64,000 nt of DNA, taken from positions 288,329 to 352,328 of the forward strand of contig OZ260077.1 of NCBI GenBank assembly GCA_965284385.1, written 5' to 3'. This document shows positions 2,443 through 11,816 of the stretch, in pieces (the stretch's first letter is position 1; every line of letters starts with the position of its first letter). The DNA is from Caulobacteraceae bacterium. Lineage in GTDB: Bacteria; Pseudomonadota; Alphaproteobacteria; Caulobacterales; Caulobacteraceae. The position numbers and the translations under genes are program-made. The notes under the pieces were generated by a model, which worked only from the letters and a program-made list of their open reading frames with translations, was not told the DNA's origin and did not search any database.

Positions 2443-2818
2443 GACCCCGGTTTTGGCCACAGCGGGGTCCCCGGCAGTCACCGGAGCGGCCCGCCCCTTG
2501 CGGGCCGTGAAGGGGAACGGCAAAGCCGTTGACTTCCGGGGTGCTGTGACAAAATCGGAGGGCGTTGTGTGGGGGCAAGTCCTCGCCCGCCTTCGGGCGA
2601 GGACACAACTCGGCGCCGTCGCGCCGATACGGACAAAGACGCATCGGTTCGCTTGCCGGCGACGGCGCGCCGTCGCCCATCCGGGACCGGTGTGCTGGAA
2701 GGCGGCGGACCCCGTCCGCCGCGCACGTGGACGAGTCCCCGGCTCTTGAAGCTCGTCCCTGCCTTCGCGGGGGCGCCGAAAGCAGACCAACGGCGGCCTC
2801 GGGGGTCGAGGCCGCCGT
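2443..2818. other. Non-coding block of about nine consecutive hairpins
   Basis: Stems at 2443-2469, 2487-2507, 2516-2530, 2579-2604, 2610-2627, 2658-2677 (20-bp palindrome), 2702-2722, 2729-2758 and 2790-2818 (12-bp stem). Confidence 0.8.
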
Positions 2819-2855: not shown

Positions 2856-3332
2856 TCAGTCCAGACCCGCGAGTGCCATCAGACTCTCGGCGCTCTGGCG
2901 GACGGGACGGTAGCCGATCTCCGCATGCGCGGCGCAGAAGGCCCCCCTCGCGATCCGCCTGCCGCACAGGGCGAAGCCGGGGTCTCCGGGATCGCCGTAG
3001 GGCCAGCGGCAATCGCGCCGACGCACAAACAGGATGGTCGCCGTCCCATGAGACGGCGCATCCACCCGGCGCGGTGGGCACGACGCCGGACCCGGCGGCG
3101 GCGCGGGCCGGGCCGGCCAGGGCCGACGCGCGACCGGGGGCGCGGCGAGGCCGGCGGACCTTGAGGCCGGCGGCCGAGCGGCCGACAGGCCCAGGCGATA
3201 GACCTTGCCCAGGACCGCGCTTCTTGTGAGGCCGTGATCCAGATCGCTCGCGATCTGTGCGGCGCTACGGCCTTCGAGCCAGAGGGTCTTGAGACGACCG
3301 ACGCGGTCGTCGGTCCAGGCGGAGGCGGTCAT
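2856..3332 (-). CDS. gcrA: GcrA cell-cycle regulator family protein
   Basis: N-terminal WTDDRVGRLKTLWLEGRSAAQIA...TRSAVLGKVYRLGL (GcrA DNA-binding domain) and C-terminal CRWPYGDPG...CG...FCAAHAEIGYRP. Confidence 0.88.
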   Translation of the reverse strand: MTASAWTDDRVGRLKTLWLEGRSAAQIASDLDHGLTRSAVLGKVYRLGLSAARPPASRSAGLAAPPVARRPWPARPAPPPGPASCPPRRVDAPSHGTATILFVRRRDCRWPYGDPGDPGFALCGRRIARGAFCAAHAEIGYRPVRQSAESLMALAGLD

Positions 3333-3456: not shown

Positions 3457-3876
3457 TCAGAACGGGATGTCGTCGTTCAGATCGTATCCGCTCGCCGGCT
3501 CCTGCACCTGCCGGTCGGCGGCGCCGTCGTCCGCCGACGGCCGGTCGCGCCGGTTCTTCAGACGAATGTCGCCGACGATCAGACGCAGATCGTAGTGTTC
3601 GACCCCGTCCTTGCCGGTCCAGGTGTCGTTCTCGACATGGCCCTGGATCACGACCCGGCTGCCCTTGCGGGCGAAGGCCTCGATGTATTTCTCGGCCGTC
3701 GCCTCGTTGAAGCAGATGCAGTTGAAGCCGGTGGTGCGCTCGCCCGGCGTGCCGTCGGCGCGCCGGAAGCGGGTGGTCTCCAGCACGCGGAAGCTCGCGC
3801 GCTTCTTGCCCGAGCCCTGGGCCGACAGGATGGACGGGTCGGCGGCCAGATAGCCTTCGAGGGTGAGGGTTTGCAT
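3457..3876 (-). CDS. ssb: Single-stranded DNA-binding protein with acidic tail
   Basis: OB-fold GYLAADP...KGSRVVIQG...WTGKDG and C-terminal DLNDDIPF. Confidence 0.88.
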   Translation of the reverse strand: MQTLTLEGYLAADPSILSAQGSGKKRASFRVLETTRFRRADGTPGERTTGFNCICFNEATAEKYIEAFARKGSRVVIQGHVENDTWTGKDGVEHYDLRLIVGDIRLKNRRDRPSADDGAADRQVQEPASGYDLNDDIPF

Positions 3877-3910: not shown

Positions 3911-4276
3911 TCAGGCGGCGGCGCGATCGGTTTCGCGGGCGTCGACGGTGTCGGGGTCGCGGGCCTCGGCCCAGTCGAGGACGGTCAGCCGGTTCACCAC
4001 CAGTTCCTTGGCGGTGCGTTCGGTCCCGTCCTTGGCGGCATAGGCCGTGTCGATGAAGGCGCCGACGACGACGGCTTCGCAGCCTTGGGCCAGTCCGCGG
4101 GCGATAACCTTCTCGTTGAGCCCCTTCGACCAGCTGACGCAATTGACCCCGACGAGCCGGTCCTTGCCGGCGGCATCGACGCCGCGCTTTTCGAGCAGCC
4201 GGAACACCGCCTTGGCGAAGTCCGGGCTGATCTGGGGGTCGGCCGCCAACCGGCCGGTGAACACCATGGTCTGCAT
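3911..4276 (-). CDS. Second SSB-family OB-fold protein without DDIPF tail
   Basis: MQTMVFTGRLAADP...GCEAVVVG...YAAKDG. Start re-called, with an AGGAG RBS. Confidence 0.7.
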   Translation of the reverse strand: MQTMVFTGRLAADPQISPDFAKAVFRLLEKRGVDAAGKDRLVGVNCVSWSKGLNEKVIARGLAQGCEAVVVGAFIDTAYAAKDGTERTAKELVVNRLTVLDWAEARDPDTVDARETDRAAA

Positions 4277-4399: not shown

Positions 4400-7300
4400 T
4401 CAGGCGGCCGCTCCGTCGAGGACGGTCTGGACGGGATGGCGGCGCAGCACCGCCTCCACCACCTCAGGCCGATCCGTCGGCGCGAACACCCGGGGCGTAA
4501 AGGCGATGATCTCGACGAAGCACCCGAGCGCGACCAGGGCGTCGCGGTCCGTCCGCCCGCCGACCACCTCGATCCGCCAGCGGTCCATGACCCGCGACCG
4601 CTTGAGCCACAGGCCGCCTTCCAGCGAGAGCTGGACGTTGCGATCCAGTAAGGTGGCGGCGGTCCTTGCCCCGTCCGACCAGGCCTCGCCGACATCTGTC
4701 AGGCCGAGGCTCGCCTTGAGGCTTTGTGCCTGGACCTCGTCCAGCACACGCCCCAGCCAGCGCCGGCCGTCCGGCGCCCTGACCCGACGCACCGAACAGC
4801 CGCGCGCGGGCAGCCGGCCCCAGATCGGCAGCAGCAGACCGGTCGCGAGCGTGAGGTCGCGCGTCCGCCACGGGTCGGTTCCCGCCACCTCCTCATCCCA
4901 GACGCGGCGCCATTCGTTGGTTGCCGCTGGCTTCCAGGCCGATTCCTCGAAGGTCCTCTCTGGCAGGGTCTGACGCCCATCCGGCCGGATCAGGCGAACG
5001 GCGGCGACCAGCCGGTCCTCGTCCGTGGCGGTGGTCAGGCCGAGCTCGGCGACCGCCGCCCGGCCGGATTTGGCGTTGACGACCAGCTGATGGGCGATGT
5101 CGGCGGCCCGGGCCAGCGCGTCATGCGAGAGCAGGATGTCGCGACGAACCCTGAGCGAGAAGGTCACCAGGGCGGTTTCAGCGCCGGTCGAGACATCGGT
5201 CCGGATGGTTTCCTGGTGCAGAACCGCCAGTTCCTCCGCCTCGATGTCTTCAAGTCCACGGTCCAGATCCCCCGACGCGGCCGCACGCTCGAGGATGCCC
5301 GAGAGAATGCGGTCGAAGTCCTCGAACAAGGCGTTCTGGTCGGCGATCCTGAGCGCCAGCAGGCGGTTGAGGAAGGTGTGGATCGGCGGCAGGTCGTCGG
5401 ACGGCTTGAGTCCGCCGTCGGCGTCGAGCAGCTTGAGACCCGTCTTGTGTATGAAGGTCTGGAGCGTCATCGCAGCGAGTTCACCGAACGCCAGGGCCCC
5501 GTAGAAGACCAGCAGGGCCCGGCGCGCCCATGGGCTTTCCAGATTGTCCTCGGCCCGGAAGAGGCCCGCCCCGGCCGTCCGGCGCTCGCCGCGCGTGAGC
5601 GCGCCGAGCGTGTCCAGACGGCGGGCGATGGTCGAGGTGAAGCGTTTTTCGCCCTGGATGTCCGTCGTGACCGGCCGGAACAGCGGGGCCGAGGCCTGGT
5701 GGGTGCGGTGGCTGCGACCCAGCCCCTGGATGGCGGCGTCGGCCCGCCAGCCCGGTTCGACCAGATAGTGGACCCGGCGCTGCTGGTTCGCCGCCGACAG
5801 GTCCGCGTGATAGCTGCGTCCGGTGCCTCCGGCGTCGGAGAAGATCAGCACCCGCTTGCGGCCGCTCATGAAGGCGTCGGTCTCGGCGCGCGCCGCCGAG
5901 GCGCCGCGCCGTTCCACCAGCCTGCGTCCGTCGCGCACGACCACCCGCCGGGACCGCCCGGTGATCTCGGCGACGGCGTCCGCGCCGAGGGCCTCCAACA
6001 GGGCGTCGAGCACCCCCGGCACGGCGGGCAGGCAGGCCATCTGTTCGATCAGGCTCTCGCGCCGGGCCAGCGCCTCCTGGCTGACGGCCGGACGGCCGTC
6101 GTCCATGACCGGAACCAGGGTGACCTCGCCGCTCTCCCCCTCGACCGCCTCCATCAGGTGGATCGGGAATGCCTCGCGCAGGTAGTCGAGGACATATTCA
6201 CGCGGGGTCATGTCTATCGAAAGGTTGTTCCATTCCTCGGGCGGGACGGACGCCAGCCGCCGCTCCATCACCGCCTCATTGGTCGAGACGATCTGGACCA
6301 CGGCCGAGCGATCGTGGCCCAGATCCTCCCGGATCGACGCCACCAGGCTCGGCGCCTTCAGCCCCGCGAGCAGATGGCCGAAGAAGCGCAGCTTGGCGCC
6401 CTCGAAGGCGGAATGGGCCGCCGACGCGGCCTGGCCGCTCCTGGGCTTGCCCGTCTCGTCGTTGACGCCGACGGCCTTCAAGGCCTCGGCGAGATTGGCG
6501 TGGATCAGCTGGAAGGCGTCGGCCCAGGCGTCCCAGATCGCGATGTCGTCGGACGTCAGGGGATGGACCAGCGGCTGGTATTCGACCCCTTCGAACGACA
6601 GGCTCCGCGCCACATAGAGGCCGAGCGCCTTGAGTTCGCGCGCCACCAGCTCCATCGCCGCCACCCCGCCCCGGTCCATGGCGTCCAGGAAATCCGCCCG
6701 CGACATGAAGGGCGCCTCCGGCCCGCCCCACAGGCCCAGCCGGGCGGCATAGGCCAGGTTCTCGGCGGTGGTGGCGCCGGTCGCCGAGACATAGAGGACC
6801 CGCGCATCGGGCAGTCGGTTCTGCAGCGCCAGACCGGCCATCCCCTGCAGCGACGCCTTCTTCGTTCCCCGCGCGCCCTTGCCGCCACCCGCGGCGTTGG
6901 CCATCGCATGGGCCTCGTCGAAGGCGATGACGCCGTCGAAATCCGCGCCGAGCCAGGCGATGATCTGGTCGAGCCGCGATTGACGGGCGCCCCGCGCCGG
7001 TTGGCGAAGCGTCGCATAGGTCGTGAACAGAATGCCCCGGTCGAGCCGGATGGCGTCCCCCTGTTTCCAGCTCGAAAGGGGCACGATGTCATGAGCGCCG
7101 CCGCCGATCGCCGCCCAGTCGCGCCGCGCGTCCTCCAGCAAGGCGTCGTTCCGTGACAGCCATAGCGCGCGCACCCGGCCCTGGCTCATGTTGTCGGCGA
7201 TGACGGCGGCGATCTGGCGGCCTTTGCCGCAGCCGGTGCCATCGCCCAGGAAGAAGCCGCGCCGCAGCTGGACGGCGTCCTCCTGGTCCTCGGGCGCGAG

Positions 7301-8662
7301 CACCATATGGTGGGGCGCCGTGTCCAGCCGCCACTGTCCGGGCAGATGCGCGGCGTGGGCCTCGCCGGCGTAGATGACCATCTCGGTCTGGGCGTCCGAG
7401 ATCCAGCCCTGGTCGCGCATGGCCGGAGGGAGTACCGGTCGATAGGTCGGCGCCGGCGGCGCCACCGAGGCCATGGGCCCGGACTCGACCAGAGGCGACG
7501 GATGCGGGCGGGGCTCGGGCAGAACGATCCGCCCCAGGGCGTGGGCCTGGTATAGCCCGACATCGCGACCCTCCCCCGTCCAGGCGCGAACCTCATAGGT
7601 CAGGGCCGCAGCCCCACCCAGAAAGGCCAGCCGGCCGGAGGGCAAGGCCAGGCCTCGCGCGCGTGGTCCCAGCAGGGCGTCTATCGTCACCGGCAGGCGC
7701 GTTCGCGGCCTGGCGCCGATCCGCGGCGAAATCGCCCCTGTCATCCGCGCCGCGCTCTGCAGGTCGTCGGCGGTCTGGAGCGGCGCGGCGCCCGCGGGAC
7801 CTTCGGCGCGGTCGATCACCAGCAGACCGGTCTCAACGGAGGTCCCATGTTTGGCGAAACCGCCGGACGGCAAGGCGATGCGGCTCACGACGGCGCCGAC
7901 CTCGCAGAGGCGGCGAAGCAGCGCGGCGTCCGTCAGGGCGTTCAGGGGGACGATCGCGGCCAACCGGCCATGGTCGGCCAGGGCCTTCAGGGCCGCCGTC
8001 AGATGGGCGGCCAGGTTCGAGAACGGCGGATTGCACACCACCACGTCGAATTCGCCCGAGCCCGCGGACAGGTCATGGATATGGCGTCCGTCGTGGCGCG
8101 TCCGGTCCGCGCCCGGAAAGAGCCCGTCGAGGAGGTCGGCCCGACCGGTCGCGAGCTCATTCAGGCTCAGCAGCCCACCGCAGGCCTCCGCGACCGAGGC
8201 GATGAGGCCCGTTCCGGCCGAGGGCTCCAGGACGCGGTCGCCGGGACGCACCTGGGCGGCCAGGACGGCGAGCGCGGCCAGATGCGGCGGCGTCGAGAAT
8301 TGATCGAACTCGACCTGCGCCTCGCTGCGCCGGGACTGGGTCAGCCCGAGCGCCGAGACGGCCGCCAGCAGGGCGGTGATCTCCGCCGGCGCATCTTCCA
8401 GGCGGCCGACCTGGGGCGCGAGACGCCGGACCTGCAGGACCGTCGCCGCCTCTATCGCGTCATAGGCGTCGCGCCAGGCCCAGACGCCCTCGGCGTCGGA
8501 CCCGCCGAACGCGGTCGTCATGATGGCGGCGACGAGCTTGCGGTCGAGCGGACGGGACCGCGCCAGATGCGCCGCCAGCGCCCGGGCGGCAGCGAGGATA
8601 TTGGCGGCGGCATCGCCGGCGGCCGGATCGGCGAACAGGGACAGGTTGGGGGTCGAGGACAT
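4400..8662 (-). CDS. N6-adenine methyltransferase-like domain fused to strawberry-notch NTPase/helicase
   Basis: VLEPSAGTG and NPPF (MTase motifs I and IV); LGDGTGCGKGR, FDEAH, GGTGRSYHAD, QGLGRSHRTHQ (SNO motifs). Start re-called to MSSTPNL. Confidence 0.88.
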   Translation of the reverse strand: MSSTPNLSLFADPAAGDAAANILAAARALAAHLARSRPLDRKLVAAIMTTAFGGSDAEGVWAWRDAYDAIEAATVLQVRRLAPQVGRLEDAPAEITALLAAVSALGLTQSRRSEAQVEFDQFSTPPHLAALAVLAAQVRPGDRVLEPSAGTGLIASVAEACGGLLSLNELATGRADLLDGLFPGADRTRHDGRHIHDLSAGSGEFDVVVCNPPFSNLAAHLTAALKALADHGRLAAIVPLNALTDAALLRRLCEVGAVVSRIALPSGGFAKHGTSVETGLLVIDRAEGPAGAAPLQTADDLQSAARMTGAISPRIGARPRTRLPVTIDALLGPRARGLALPSGRLAFLGGAAALTYEVRAWTGEGRDVGLYQAHALGRIVLPEPRPHPSPLVESGPMASVAPPAPTYRPVLPPAMRDQGWISDAQTEMVIYAGEAHAAHLPGQWRLDTAPHHMVLAPEDQEDAVQLRRGFFLGDGTGCGKGRQIAAVIADNMSQGRVRALWLSRNDALLEDARRDWAAIGGGAHDIVPLSSWKQGDAIRLDRGILFTTYATLRQPARGARQSRLDQIIAWLGADFDGVIAFDEAHAMANAAGGGKGARGTKKASLQGMAGLALQNRLPDARVLYVSATGATTAENLAYAARLGLWGGPEAPFMSRADFLDAMDRGGVAAMELVARELKALGLYVARSLSFEGVEYQPLVHPLTSDDIAIWDAWADAFQLIHANLAEALKAVGVNDETGKPRSGQAASAAHSAFEGAKLRFFGHLLAGLKAPSLVASIREDLGHDRSAVVQIVSTNEAVMERRLASVPPEEWNNLSIDMTPREYVLDYLREAFPIHLMEAVEGESGEVTLVPVMDDGRPAVSQEALARRESLIEQMACLPAVPGVLDALLEALGADAVAEITGRSRRVVVRDGRRLVERRGASAARAETDAFMSGRKRVLIFSDAGGTGRSYHADLSAANQQRRVHYLVEPGWRADAAIQGLGRSHRTHQASAPLFRPVTTDIQGEKRFTSTIARRLDTLGALTRGERRTAGAGLFRAEDNLESPWARRALLVFYGALAFGELAAMTLQTFIHKTGLKLLDADGGLKPSDDLPPIHTFLNRLLALRIADQNALFEDFDRILSGILERAAASGDLDRGLEDIEAEELAVLHQETIRTDVSTGAETALVTFSLRVRRDILLSHDALARAADIAHQLVVNAKSGRAAVAELGLTTATDEDRLVAAVRLIRPDGRQTLPERTFEESAWKPAATNEWRRVWDEEVAGTDPWRTRDLTLATGLLLPIWGRLPARGCSVRRVRAPDGRRWLGRVLDEVQAQSLKASLGLTDVGEAWSDGARTAATLLDRNVQLSLEGGLWLKRSRVMDRWRIEVVGGRTDRDALVALGCFVEIIAFTPRVFAPTDRPEVVEAVLRRHPVQTVLDGAAA

Positions 8663-8714
8663 GGCGAAGGCTCCGGCAGCCTGGAGCGGAGGGCGCCTCC
8701 CTCCCGGTCCTGCA

Positions 8715-8744
8715 GGCTCGCCTCGCCCCGCCCTTTCCTCGCCC
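8715..8744 (-). repeat. 30-nt purine-rich upstream element, copy 2
   Basis: Sense strand GGGCGAGGAAAGGGCGGGGCGAGGCGAGCC. A perfect 13-bp hairpin lies nearby at 8772-8800. Confidence 0.65.
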
Positions 8745-8819
8745 TTTCCCACGCCAGGGATTCGCACGACTACGCCGCCCCGGCTGAGCCGGGGCGGCGT
8801 CCGTCAGGAAGACTGGCGG

Positions 8820-10913: not shown

Positions 10914-11816
10914 TCAAGACCCTCGCTCCTCTCCTTTCGCCGCGGCGACGGCCACCTCGTTCCAGTCGCCGAACGGCGGGTCTGGAAGGACGATACGGAC
11001 CTCCAGACCGCCGGGCACGAGGCGGCGTCGAAGCCGCGCCGCGCAGCCCTCGCCCGCGGCTCCCCGGTCGGCGGCGATCAGCACGCGGCGCACCCGCGCG
11101 GGCGGCGTCCAGGCCGCGAGGTTGTTCGCCGCCATCAGGGCCCAACCCGGAAGTTGGAAGCGGTCCATGGCGCACAGGGTCGTGACAACGCCTTCCCCGA
11201 CCAGCATCTCCGCAGCCGCCGAAGCCAGACGAACGGCGGCGCCGGCCGGAACCAGACCGACCGTCTTTCGCGTCAGTCGCAGGCCCGAGGCGAGACGCCC
11301 GTTCCGGTCCAGATAGGTCAGCTCCACCGCCGTCAGCCGGTCCTCTCTGTCGCTGATCCGCGCGATCAGGGCGGGGCGACCCCGGCCACGCGGCCGGTAG
11401 ACGGAGATCGGCGCTTCCGGATGGAACCTGAGGTTCGACGCGGCGGCGACGGCTTGAACGGCGCGCCGATGCAGGTAGCGATCGGCGGGGCCGCCGCCAT
11501 CCAGCCCCCGACAACCGGCCCAGAGATCCGAGGCCGTCTGGAGACGAAGACGGGGATCGGGCCTTGGGACCGGCGGACCCGGCGGCCCACCGCCGGTCAA
11601 TCGGCCAGCATCGTCGATGAAGCCCCGGTCGTGCAACTGATCGCGGACGGTCCTCCAGTCCGACCCGCCGAAGCCGTGAATGACGACCCGGTTGTCGGTC
11701 AGCAGCAGCGAGACCGAACGATCCTGCGCGCTATGGCCGGGCGCGGGGACATTGGCGCGCCGTCCGCCGGAATAGAGATCGCCGCCCAGGGCGGCGACGA
11801 TGCGATGCAAGGTCAT
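10914..11816 (-). CDS. DUF7146/Toprim domain protein
   Basis: PAPGHSAQDRS N-terminus; VGEGVVTTL and LIAADRGAAG...DWNE Toprim motifs. Confidence 0.8.
   Translation of the reverse strand: MTLHRIVAALGGDLYSGGRRANVPAPGHSAQDRSVSLLLTDNRVVIHGFGGSDWRTVRDQLHDRGFIDDAGRLTGGGPPGPPVPRPDPRLRLQTASDLWAGCRGLDGGGPADRYLHRRAVQAVAAASNLRFHPEAPISVYRPRGRGRPALIARISDREDRLTAVELTYLDRNGRLASGLRLTRKTVGLVPAGAAVRLASAAAEMLVGEGVVTTLCAMDRFQLPGWALMAANNLAAWTPPARVRRVLIAADRGAAGEGCAARLRRRLVPGGLEVRIVLPDPPFGDWNEVAVAAAKGEERGS

Follow-up and report, generated by a model that had tools for sequence, protein, structure and literature searches.

A conserved, branched hairpin in the leading region of a Caulobacterales conjugative element: a candidate single-stranded DNA promoter of a new class

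What is the role of a non-coding gap that is packed with hairpins and lies at the transfer-proximal end of a conjugative element? The question is raised by the left end of a 64,000-nucleotide (nt) stretch of DNA from a Caulobacteraceae bacterium (contig OZ260077.1, positions 288,329 to 352,328; hereafter the window), where 457 nt separate the stop codon of a gcrA-family gene (2856) from the start codon of a YAcAr/DUF2493-type gene (2398), both on the minus strand. An earlier, sequence-only reading saw about nine back-to-back hairpins here and proposed an equivalent of the Frpo/ssi elements, acting on single-stranded DNA (ssDNA) as promoter or priming site, or else a non-coding RNA or leader. 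Known ssDNA hairpins that reconstitute -35 and -10 boxes, and so allow leading genes to be transcribed for a short time ahead of second-strand synthesis, are Frpo1/2 of F and ssi1-3 of ColIb-P9/pESBL (class 1) and the class 2 and 3 elements of pESBL/F (PMC9849209, PMC12672017). Our answer is that one part of the gap, the 157 nt at 2425-2581 on the plus strand, is probably (at roughly 70%) an Frpo-like ssDNA promoter of a new class, unrelated in sequence to the known ones, and possibly also a priming site. This answer draws on how the element folds and covaries, which strand it favours, which motifs are conserved, and where and in which orientation it lies in its genomic contexts, all of which the sequence comparison shows.

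The gap is indeed crowded with stems. Its fold (2399-2855) was compared with those of 100 dinucleotide shuffles, none of which folded as well on either strand; the z-scores are -5.7 (minus strand) and -6.5 (plus strand) as RNA, and -6.5 (minus) and -6.6 (plus) as DNA. The stems quoted by the sequence-only reading are found where it had placed them, GTCCTCGCCC/GGGCGAGGAC at 2579-2604, the palindrome GGCGACGGCGCGCCGTCGCC at 2658-2677 and ACGGCGGCCTCG/CGAGGCCGCCGT at 2790-2818, and additional stems occupy 2611-2626, 2701-2722, 2729-2758 and 2760-2784. The anatomy is nevertheless not that of nine hairpins forming one ssDNA element, since 2579-2677 prefers the minus strand and 2680-2855 is unconserved. 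The left third of the gap, 2425-2581, is instead one composite structure that begins 18 nt before the start assigned to the hairpins earlier, and it is the sole part of the gap conserved beyond the immediate family of this integrative and conjugative element (ICE). No known RNA family accounts for either part: Rfam 15 at gathering thresholds has no match in the whole window, and at E <= 10 the region 2300-2950 gives chance-level matches only (E 0.4-6.6).

Relatives of the element were found by sequence, by pattern and by structure. When the gap was compared by blastn with 72,556 plasmids, only 2455-2565 matched, in intergenic DNA of three Caulobacterales plasmids, two of which carry the match 2-3 kb from a MobQ relaxase gene in the same relative orientation as in the window. 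In the first alignment, of four sequences, a long imperfect hairpin built around a three-way junction could be recognised, with 15 compensatory pairs and the plus strand as the better folder. A pattern made of the invariant blocks retrieved 119 genome loci, about 84 of them genuine; the other ~35 (in Arthrobacter, Streptomyces and others) are chance occurrences in coding sequence and were dropped by eye on the complementarity of the arms. The hosts are Brevundimonas, Caulobacter, Asticcacaulis, Phenylobacterium and Hellea/Litorimonas, with a few Bradyrhizobium, Methylocystis and Sphingomonas metagenome-assembled genomes (MAGs). A covariance model (R1), built from 36 representatives, recovers 108 copies over 87 loci in Caulobacterales and a few other Alphaproteobacteria. 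Exactly one copy is found in the window, at 2425-2581, with 147.9 bits on the plus strand and 23.6 on the minus strand; the 64 kb hold no additional copy, the next best score being 12.6 bits. The single pattern match among viral contigs scored 18.5 bits with the model and was taken as chance.

The pairing is supported by covariation that far exceeds chance. In a structure-blind MAFFT alignment of the 36 representatives, 92.7% of the cells in paired columns form standard pairs (77.9% after shuffling), double changes are seen in 156 cells (45 after shuffling) and the covariation score is 0.396 (0.146 after shuffling). None of 500 shuffles attains the observed pairing or covariation, and when partners are slid by 1-3 columns the pairing falls to 26-48%. 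Covariation among homologues, which the sequence-only reading had made a test of its proposal, is thus present for 2425-2581. It is heavy in stems P1, P3, P4 and P6, with double changes in all 5 pairs of helix 6, whereas the pairs of the -35 box never covary. Together with indels of differing length in the P6 arm, the paired-column covariation also led us to reject a coding reading of the open reading frames (ORFs) that cross the gap, which had been dismissed earlier as low-complexity shadows.

How is the element built? According to the DNA minimum-energy pair table and the alignment, its 5' arm (2429-2480), the proposed template arm, pairs with the 3' arm, stem P3 joining 2458-2464 to 2542-2548, and is interrupted by four bulged nt, GGGT (2465-2468). 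Next, at 2481-2516, comes P6, the side arm of the junction, in which a variable, covarying stem-loop (2486-2508) is flanked by near-invariant CCGGAG and GGAGGGGAAC. An apical hairpin, P7 (2517-2529, AACGGC-AAA-GCCGTT), caps the duplex upstream of the -35; in other copies its stem is AACCCGC/GCGGGTT, with AAC...GTT kept. The -35 box TTGACT (2529-2534) is predicted to become double-stranded through coaxial stacking of P7 on P5, the closing pair of P7 (T2529-A2517) being stacked on 2530-2534/2476-2480. In the predicted fold the box is therefore continuous across the junction, and the variable arm P6 branches from the opposite strand. A spacer of 15 nt, within which the bulge of the template arm falls, separates it from the hexamer CAAAAT (2550-2555) of an extended -10 (2547-2555) that begins with TG at 2547-2548, followed by A. 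CAAAAT pairs with GTTTTG (2450-2455), the only A+T-rich stretch, with a T2555.G2450 wobble at the end. In a copy on a Caulobacter plasmid, examined by hand, the -10 region apparently lies in an internal loop.

The boxes are conserved at the positions that matter for promoter recognition. All of the 37 clusters formed at 85% identity contain TTGAC, and a -10 hexamer, yAnnnT, follows at a fixed spacing of 15 nt, with A2 in 31 and T6 in 29 clusters; the exceptions are mostly indel variants in which the same hexamer is shifted. A2 and T6, the -10 positions that sigma-70 reads most specifically, are fixed inside a helix whose remaining positions covary. TG stands one base before the hexamer (-15/-14), as in extended -10 promoters, in 23/37 clusters. 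On the plus strand of the first 14 kb of the window, TTGACN-N14-18-nAnnnT occurs once, at the boxes of the element, and no TTGAC-type hairpin promoter was found upstream of gcrA, ssb or the helicase gene in the window. Versions of the element with low GC content (49-54%) exist in Litorimonas and Hellea MAGs (L026:1946-2091(-) and L036:2979-3124(-)); they carry a near-consensus extended -10 (TGA TAAATT / TGA TAGATT).

The placement of the boxes determines which gene could be served. They are located in the 3' arm, with the -35 closest to the loop, so that a polymerase would head to the base of the hairpin; its template would be the 5' arm followed by the 5'-flanking part of the plus strand, and the product would be sense RNA for the minus-strand gene. 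Only this placement lets a hairpin promoter read through its base into a gene on the 5' side. Judged from the position of the -10, the template start would lie at about 2443-2445, and the RNA would run leftward with a 5' untranslated region (UTR) of about 45 nt to the ATG at 2398. The gene that the element would drive is YAcAr/DUF2493, the first gene after the origin of transfer (oriT).

Copies elsewhere hold the same position. They lie 10-30 nt upstream of start codons on the opposite strand, the distance in the window being 27 nt. On annotated plasmids, 8 of 9 copies have the start of an annotated opposite-strand coding sequence (CDS) at a distance of 10-22 nt, and the ninth precedes a conserved, unannotated ORF. 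The window ICE has a single copy near oriT, and 4-6 copies are found within 8 kb on the B. vesicularis plasmid NZ_CP085235 (L004 1-8000) and at a second locus (L050). All five pattern copies in the B. vesicularis array adjoin an opposite-strand gene start, and model R1 finds the same copies. Multi-copy loci are co-oriented in 12/13 cases, and the arrays often stand beside relaxase genes. The downstream genes are diverse and mostly without a Pfam family; they include YAcAr/DUF2493, PAPS-reductase-like and DUF6884-like genes and many genes for small proteins, and RadC-like and SSB genes are present in the element-bearing stretches. Diverse small genes with RadC-like and SSB genes are the make-up described for leading regions (PMC11541004). 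The two large arrays are interleaved with RadC-like, PAPS-reductase-like and DUF6884-like genes and with several ORFs that have no Pfam family, and such a stretch looks like a candidate anti-defence or establishment island.

Which strand folds better separates an mRNA leader from a transferred DNA strand. The plus strand, antisense to the downstream gene, is the more stable one in 36 of 38 representatives with RNA as well as DNA parameters, by a mean of 8.5 kcal/mol (RNA) or 5.9 kcal/mol (DNA). For 2425-2581 the DNA fold reaches -54.4 kcal/mol on the plus strand (z -6.1, equalled by 0/200 shuffles) and -44.5 kcal/mol on the minus strand (z -3.6). A wobble count points the same way: the paired columns of 99 unique copies hold 209 G:T and 34 A:C pairs, A:C on the plus strand being G:U on the opposite strand. 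The neighbouring hairpins at 2579-2677 show the opposite strand bias, and strand composition is therefore no explanation for the preference of the element.

The plus strand is also very probably the one that is transferred. At 1258-1272 on this strand lies CTTTTATCTTGCCCT, whose core TATCTTGC has one mismatch to the MOBP nick consensus YATCCTG|Y, at which the relaxase stays on the 5' end after nicking (PMC3772185). CTTTTATCTTGCCCT is invariant, on the strand of the element and about 1.1 kb 5' of it, in 36/39 unique related ICE loci, amid variable flanks; no obvious inverted repeat is seen on its 5' side. By conservation and consensus it is likely the oriT nick region for the DUF3363-type relaxase, and the nick would, by analogy, separate G1268 from C1269, with the plus strand entering 5' to 3' toward higher coordinates. 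On the P. zucineum HLK1 plasmid (L124), a perfect TATCCTGC is found on the strand of the element, 565 nt 5' of a 128-bit copy, which itself lies 22 nt ahead of a minus-strand CDS with the relaxase gene just beyond. On Caulobacter MOBQ plasmids (L001/L002), an inverted repeat followed by CATAACTGCGCCCTT (TAACTGCGCCCT), again on the strand of the element, is located between mobQ and four copies; the MOBQ nick consensus is NWACCNNTAAGTGCGCCCTYNN (PMC3832669). Because three unrelated oriT types agree in having a nick consensus on the strand of the element, 0.6-1.2 kb 5' of it, the plus strand is taken to be the transferred strand. The window copy would then enter about 1.16 kb after the putative nick, in line with the 1.2 kb proposed by the sequence-only reading.

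These features suggest the following course of events. The plus strand would be nicked at about 1268/1269 and would enter the recipient with its 5' end first. About 1.2 kb later the element would arrive single-stranded and fold on itself, its 3' arm offering TTGACT, a TG-bearing spacer of 15 nt and CAAAAT as duplex, and the apical hairpin, stacked on the main stem across the three-way junction, would make the -35 continuous. Host RNA polymerase with the housekeeping sigma factor would bind this pseudo-duplex and move down to the hairpin base, copying first the 5' arm and next the incoming strand, and YAcAr/DUF2493 mRNA would be made while the DNA still lacks its complement. Conversion to duplex removes the hairpin and leaves the boxes facing away from the gene, so that expression would be short-lived. 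Priming of the complementary strand by the short RNA is a further possibility, as shown for Frpo. The transferred strand, polymerase binding, the start site and the timing are the parts of this scheme that we infer. In a bolder version, which we entertain only tentatively, the element would be a dual-function ssDNA module of alphaproteobacterial conjugative elements, combining early transcription with complementary-strand priming, and its junction nucleotides (GTCACCGGAG/GGAGGGGAAC) would be recognised by a specific factor, such as a protein that is encoded by the element or transferred with it, and not by the sigma-70 holoenzyme alone.

Several points weigh against a promoter role. The sequences are akin, and the cell counts given above overstate the number of independent events; of the 209 G:T pairs, 135 come from three positions, although the remainder is still above 2:1. 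The retrieval pattern required GCCGTTGAC for most sequences, and the invariance of the -35 is partly by construction; 13 copies found by the model only, without the search pattern, keep GTTGAC although their adjoining stem has switched from AACGGC/GCCGTT to AACCCGC/GCGGGTT. The spacer of 15 nt is shorter than the optimum of 17 +/- 1 of E. coli sigma-70, and a standard promoter scan with 16-18 nt gives no call; 15 nt fits the range of spacings described for sigma-73 promoters of Caulobacter (TTGACGS-N10-14-GCTANAWC). Members of a divergent subfamily (33-52 bits; L004:1149-1309(-), L037:1649-1809 and 6009-6168(+), L060:673-820(-) and L003:5818-5974(-)) have about 24 nt between the boxes, owing to 9 inserted nt (GATAACCGG-like) that separate TTGACG from the hexamer TAGGAT/CAAACT; either this insertion is bulged out or these copies have a different mode of action. 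The junction nucleotides GTCACCGGAG and GGAGGGGAAC, which are near-invariant in all subfamilies and lie outside the -35 and -10 boxes, are left unexplained by a plain promoter; their invariance suggests a tertiary contact or a specific binding partner. The transferred strand is itself deduced from the orientation of the nick motifs. On the B. nasdae plasmid NZ_CP080035 (L003), two copies (3968-4122(+) and 5818-5974(-)) are in opposite orientation, each facing its own gene, and one transferred strand cannot hold both without rearrangement. This may be a rearranged leading region; an SSB gene lies between the two copies, a recombinase gene is nearby and the plasmid is typed as non-mobilisable. 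Finally, the transcript data consist only of unstranded metatranscriptome contigs from relatives at 90-95%, with possible DNA carry-over, and are silent on start sites.

Other roles for the element have to be weighed against these facts. It could be a single-strand initiation site or origin that recruits RNA polymerase or primase to make a primer, any gene expression being incidental. The same evidence on strand and structure would apply, Frpo is known to serve both purposes (Masai and Arai 1997, as cited in PMC12672017), and ICEs need such a site, as illustrated by the single-strand origin (sso) of ICEBs1 (PMC4595007). In the window ICE, moreover, only one copy exists, close to oriT; a protein other than sigma might recognise the conserved junction loops, and a Toprim/DUF7146 protein is encoded at 10914-11816. 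Yet one priming site per element is enough, and plasmids hold 4-6 co-oriented copies, each 10-30 nt before a different start codon, a tight coupling that gene expression demands and priming does not. We consider priming as the sole role unlikely for this reason; the two roles are mutually compatible, inseparable by sequence, and may well coexist as in Frpo. A structured 5' leader, that is, a cis-regulatory RNA on the minus strand with its promoter further upstream, would suit the position directly ahead of start codons in every context and the fact that the minus strand still folds (z -3.6). It is improbable, as the minus strand is the worse folder in 36/38 representatives, the G:T pairs of the plus strand would be C:A mismatches in the minus-strand RNA (209 against 34), the model gives 148 bits on the plus and 24 on the minus strand, the invariant blocks read as -35 and -10 on the plus strand only, no Rfam family matches, and the promoter scan finds no sigma-70-like promoter upstream on the minus strand. 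The non-coding RNA or leader considered by the sequence-only reading is accordingly disfavoured for 2425-2581; for the rest of the gap it remains reasonable, as stems of a 3' UTR or a terminator.

Two further explanations dispense with a promoter that works in ssDNA. TTGAC and yAnnnT exist in duplex DNA as well and could form an ordinary double-stranded promoter that fires rightwards to make an antisense or regulatory RNA, the inverted repeat being a protein operator; a stable hairpin with a TTCG loop (2579-2604) indeed stands about 20 nt past the would-be start. Such an RNA would contain neither arm of the hairpin, leaving the arm covariation over about 150 nt unexplained, no plus-strand gene follows in any context, and operators do not retain pairing while both sides change sequence, which makes this reading very improbable. 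Least probable of all is a mobile or recombination element that folds as ssDNA, such as a MITE (miniature inverted-repeat transposable element), an IS200/IS605-type end or an integron attC-like site. Strand-specific folding and co-oriented arrays of copies between short ORFs of unknown function would be expected of it, and attC sites in particular are strand-specific, imperfect ssDNA hairpins in co-oriented arrays between small genes. The element differs from attC in that it lacks R''/R' core sites at its base and an integron integrase nearby, has promoter boxes and adjoins relaxase genes. Its AAC and GTT blocks (GGGGAAC and GTTGACN) occupy the tip of the hairpin instead of its base and are off the consensus of R'' (RYYYAAC) and R' (GTTRRRY). 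No integrase or transposase gene is adjacent, and the neighbours are relaxase, ParB and SSB genes and oriT-like sites; furthermore, the next start codon is at a constant distance, but the previous stop is about 200 nt away.

If the element is an ssDNA promoter, as we favour, how does it relate to the known ones? Like Frpo1/Frpo2 and ssi1-3, it is found in the leading region, a few kb from oriT and, as deduced above, on the transferred strand; it is a long imperfect hairpin that would rebuild -35 and -10 directly upstream of leading genes read toward oriT; it can occur in several near-identical copies per mobile element; and silence is expected once it is double-stranded (PMC9849209, PMC12672017, PMC11541004). 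The leading genes of F, ColIb-P9 and pESBL are driven by such promoters (PMC9849209, PMC12672017, PMC11541004). Unlike Frpo/ssi, the element is about 157 nt long and branched, with a predicted three-way junction and a -35 that spans two stacked helices; it is also of very high GC content, combines an extended -10 TG with a spacer of 15 nt, lacks an A+T-rich UP element and resides in alphaproteobacterial hosts. Sequence homology to Frpo/ssi class 1 was not found: blastn (word 11) of 2399-2855 against PLSDB, which we take to include IncF/IncI plasmids, matched three Caulobacterales plasmids only. Since all sequence-testable defining features of Frpo/ssi are shared without sequence similarity, the element is a candidate for a new class outside the Frpo sequence family. 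The equivalence proposed by the sequence-only reading holds for 2425-2581, on the covariation, the plus-strand fold and the boxes aimed at the gene, and does not hold for the three stems that it had quoted.

Unrelated hairpins doing the same job within one leading region are known from pESBL/F, namely class 2 (upstream of klcA/ardA) and class 3 (M.EcoGIX), which emerged from hairpin mining, with confirmation by 5' RACE (rapid amplification of cDNA ends; PMC12672017). Those are enterobacterial and experimentally mapped, whereas the element described here has covariation over about 37 sequence clusters and a start site deduced from its boxes. A survey published in Nature in 2024 extended leading-region promoters by BLAST from five known sequences plus a few hand-picked candidates (PMC11541004), and in the literature that we searched the experimentally established ssDNA promoters are those of enterobacterial IncF/IncI plasmids only, classes 1-3 (PMC12672017, PMC9849209). 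The EGeRS of pLS20 were considered as a Gram-positive precedent and set aside, as their own authors argue that they are unlikely to be ssDNA promoters (PMC8708921). Full-text literature searches returned no paper tying ssDNA promoters to Caulobacter or Brevundimonas and no earlier description of the element.

Origins of the ssoA type, known from rolling-circle plasmids, are likewise strand-specific ssDNA hairpins recognised by host RNA polymerase, and their hallmarks are RSB and the CS-6 loop TAGCGT/A. The motif TAGCG is absent from 2425-2581, and an ssoA-type origin was rejected on that ground. TAGCGA, which resembles the ssoA CS-6, is present in the P6 region of Hellea/Litorimonas variants, probably by chance. 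On sso1 of ICEBs1, another strand-specific ssDNA hairpin, host RNA polymerase starts RNA on an incoming or displaced single strand (PMC4595007), as is proposed for our element; sso elements serve priming without coupling to start codons, and differ from it in this respect.

The remaining stems of the gap read as minus-strand, RNA-level structures of 3' ends and terminators. Hairpins H2 (2579-2604), H3 (2611-2626) and H4 (2658-2677) are conserved with clear compensatory changes, within the ICE family only; one has a CTTCG loop, and none is followed by a U-run. Across 2579-2677 the minus strand is more stable in 32/39 loci with RNA parameters (GU 118 against 63) and in 30/39 with DNA parameters, and this opposite preference led us to exclude the region from the ssDNA element. 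H2-H4 are probably RNA-level stems of the gcrA 3' region, or insulators; candidate roles are 3'-UTR stabilisers, Rho-independent-like stops and insulators. The GC-rich stems at 2701-2722, 2729-2758, 2760-2784 and 2790-2818, also assigned to the minus strand, are unconserved: beyond 2680 only relatives that are 98-99% identical match, while other members of the family have lost or never had about 100-160 nt of this spacer. Like H2-H4, the first three of these stems lack U-runs. On the minus strand, 2790-2818 is a 12-bp stem followed by UUGGUCUGCUUU, 38 nt past the gcrA stop, and similar stems stand in the same spacer at other loci. It is likely the gcrA terminator, although a strict terminator scan makes no call anywhere in the gap, 2790-2818 included. 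As a speculation, the stems at 2579-2818 might insulate DUF2493 from read-through and leave it dependent on the hairpin promoter.

The surroundings of the gap are those of a transfer-proximal end. On the minus strand, the left end of the window has in order a relaxase gene (MobA/VirD2 nuclease plus DUF3363; from 1131 off the left edge), a gap of 334 nt, the YAcAr/DUF2493-type SLOG gene (1466-2398; PF10686, E 2.9e-16), the 457-nt gap, the GcrA-family gene (2856-3332; PF07750, E 1e-31), a bona fide SSB gene (3457-3876), an SSB-like ORF without a Pfam match (3911-4276) and a gene (4400-8767) for a 1455-aa helicase of the Sno (Strawberry-notch) type with AAA_34, Helicase_C_4 and an N-terminal methyltransferase-like region. 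The genes on either side of the gap had been named correctly by the sequence-only reading. Transcription of gcrA, both SSB-type genes and the helicase gene is directed to oriT, and genes for ParB-like and Toprim/DUF7146 proteins follow further upstream of the helicase. The order of leading genes, oriT gap and relaxase on a single strand is the same as in plasmid F. A canonical intrinsic terminator on the minus strand (1417-1444; 12-bp stem, TTCG loop, T-run), found by the terminator scan just past the DUF2493 stop, sets this gene apart from the oriT gap; its T-run indicates that the organism does use U-run terminators.

The element has support from base-pair covariation, which none of the known classes of ssDNA promoter has had, and its predicted branched architecture with a -35 box spanning a junction would be of interest for studies of promoter recognition. 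If its role is confirmed, conjugative elements in general would be seen to transcribe the incoming strand early, a strategy no longer peculiar to enterobacteria. With the covariance model, one could then find leading regions in plasmids and ICEs of Caulobacterales and tell which strand is transferred, and dozens of small, uncharacterised downstream genes would be flagged as candidates for establishment or anti-defence functions. Should the element also prove to be the dual-function module considered above, its copies would mark a largely unexplored set of early establishment and anti-defence genes in the Caulobacterales.

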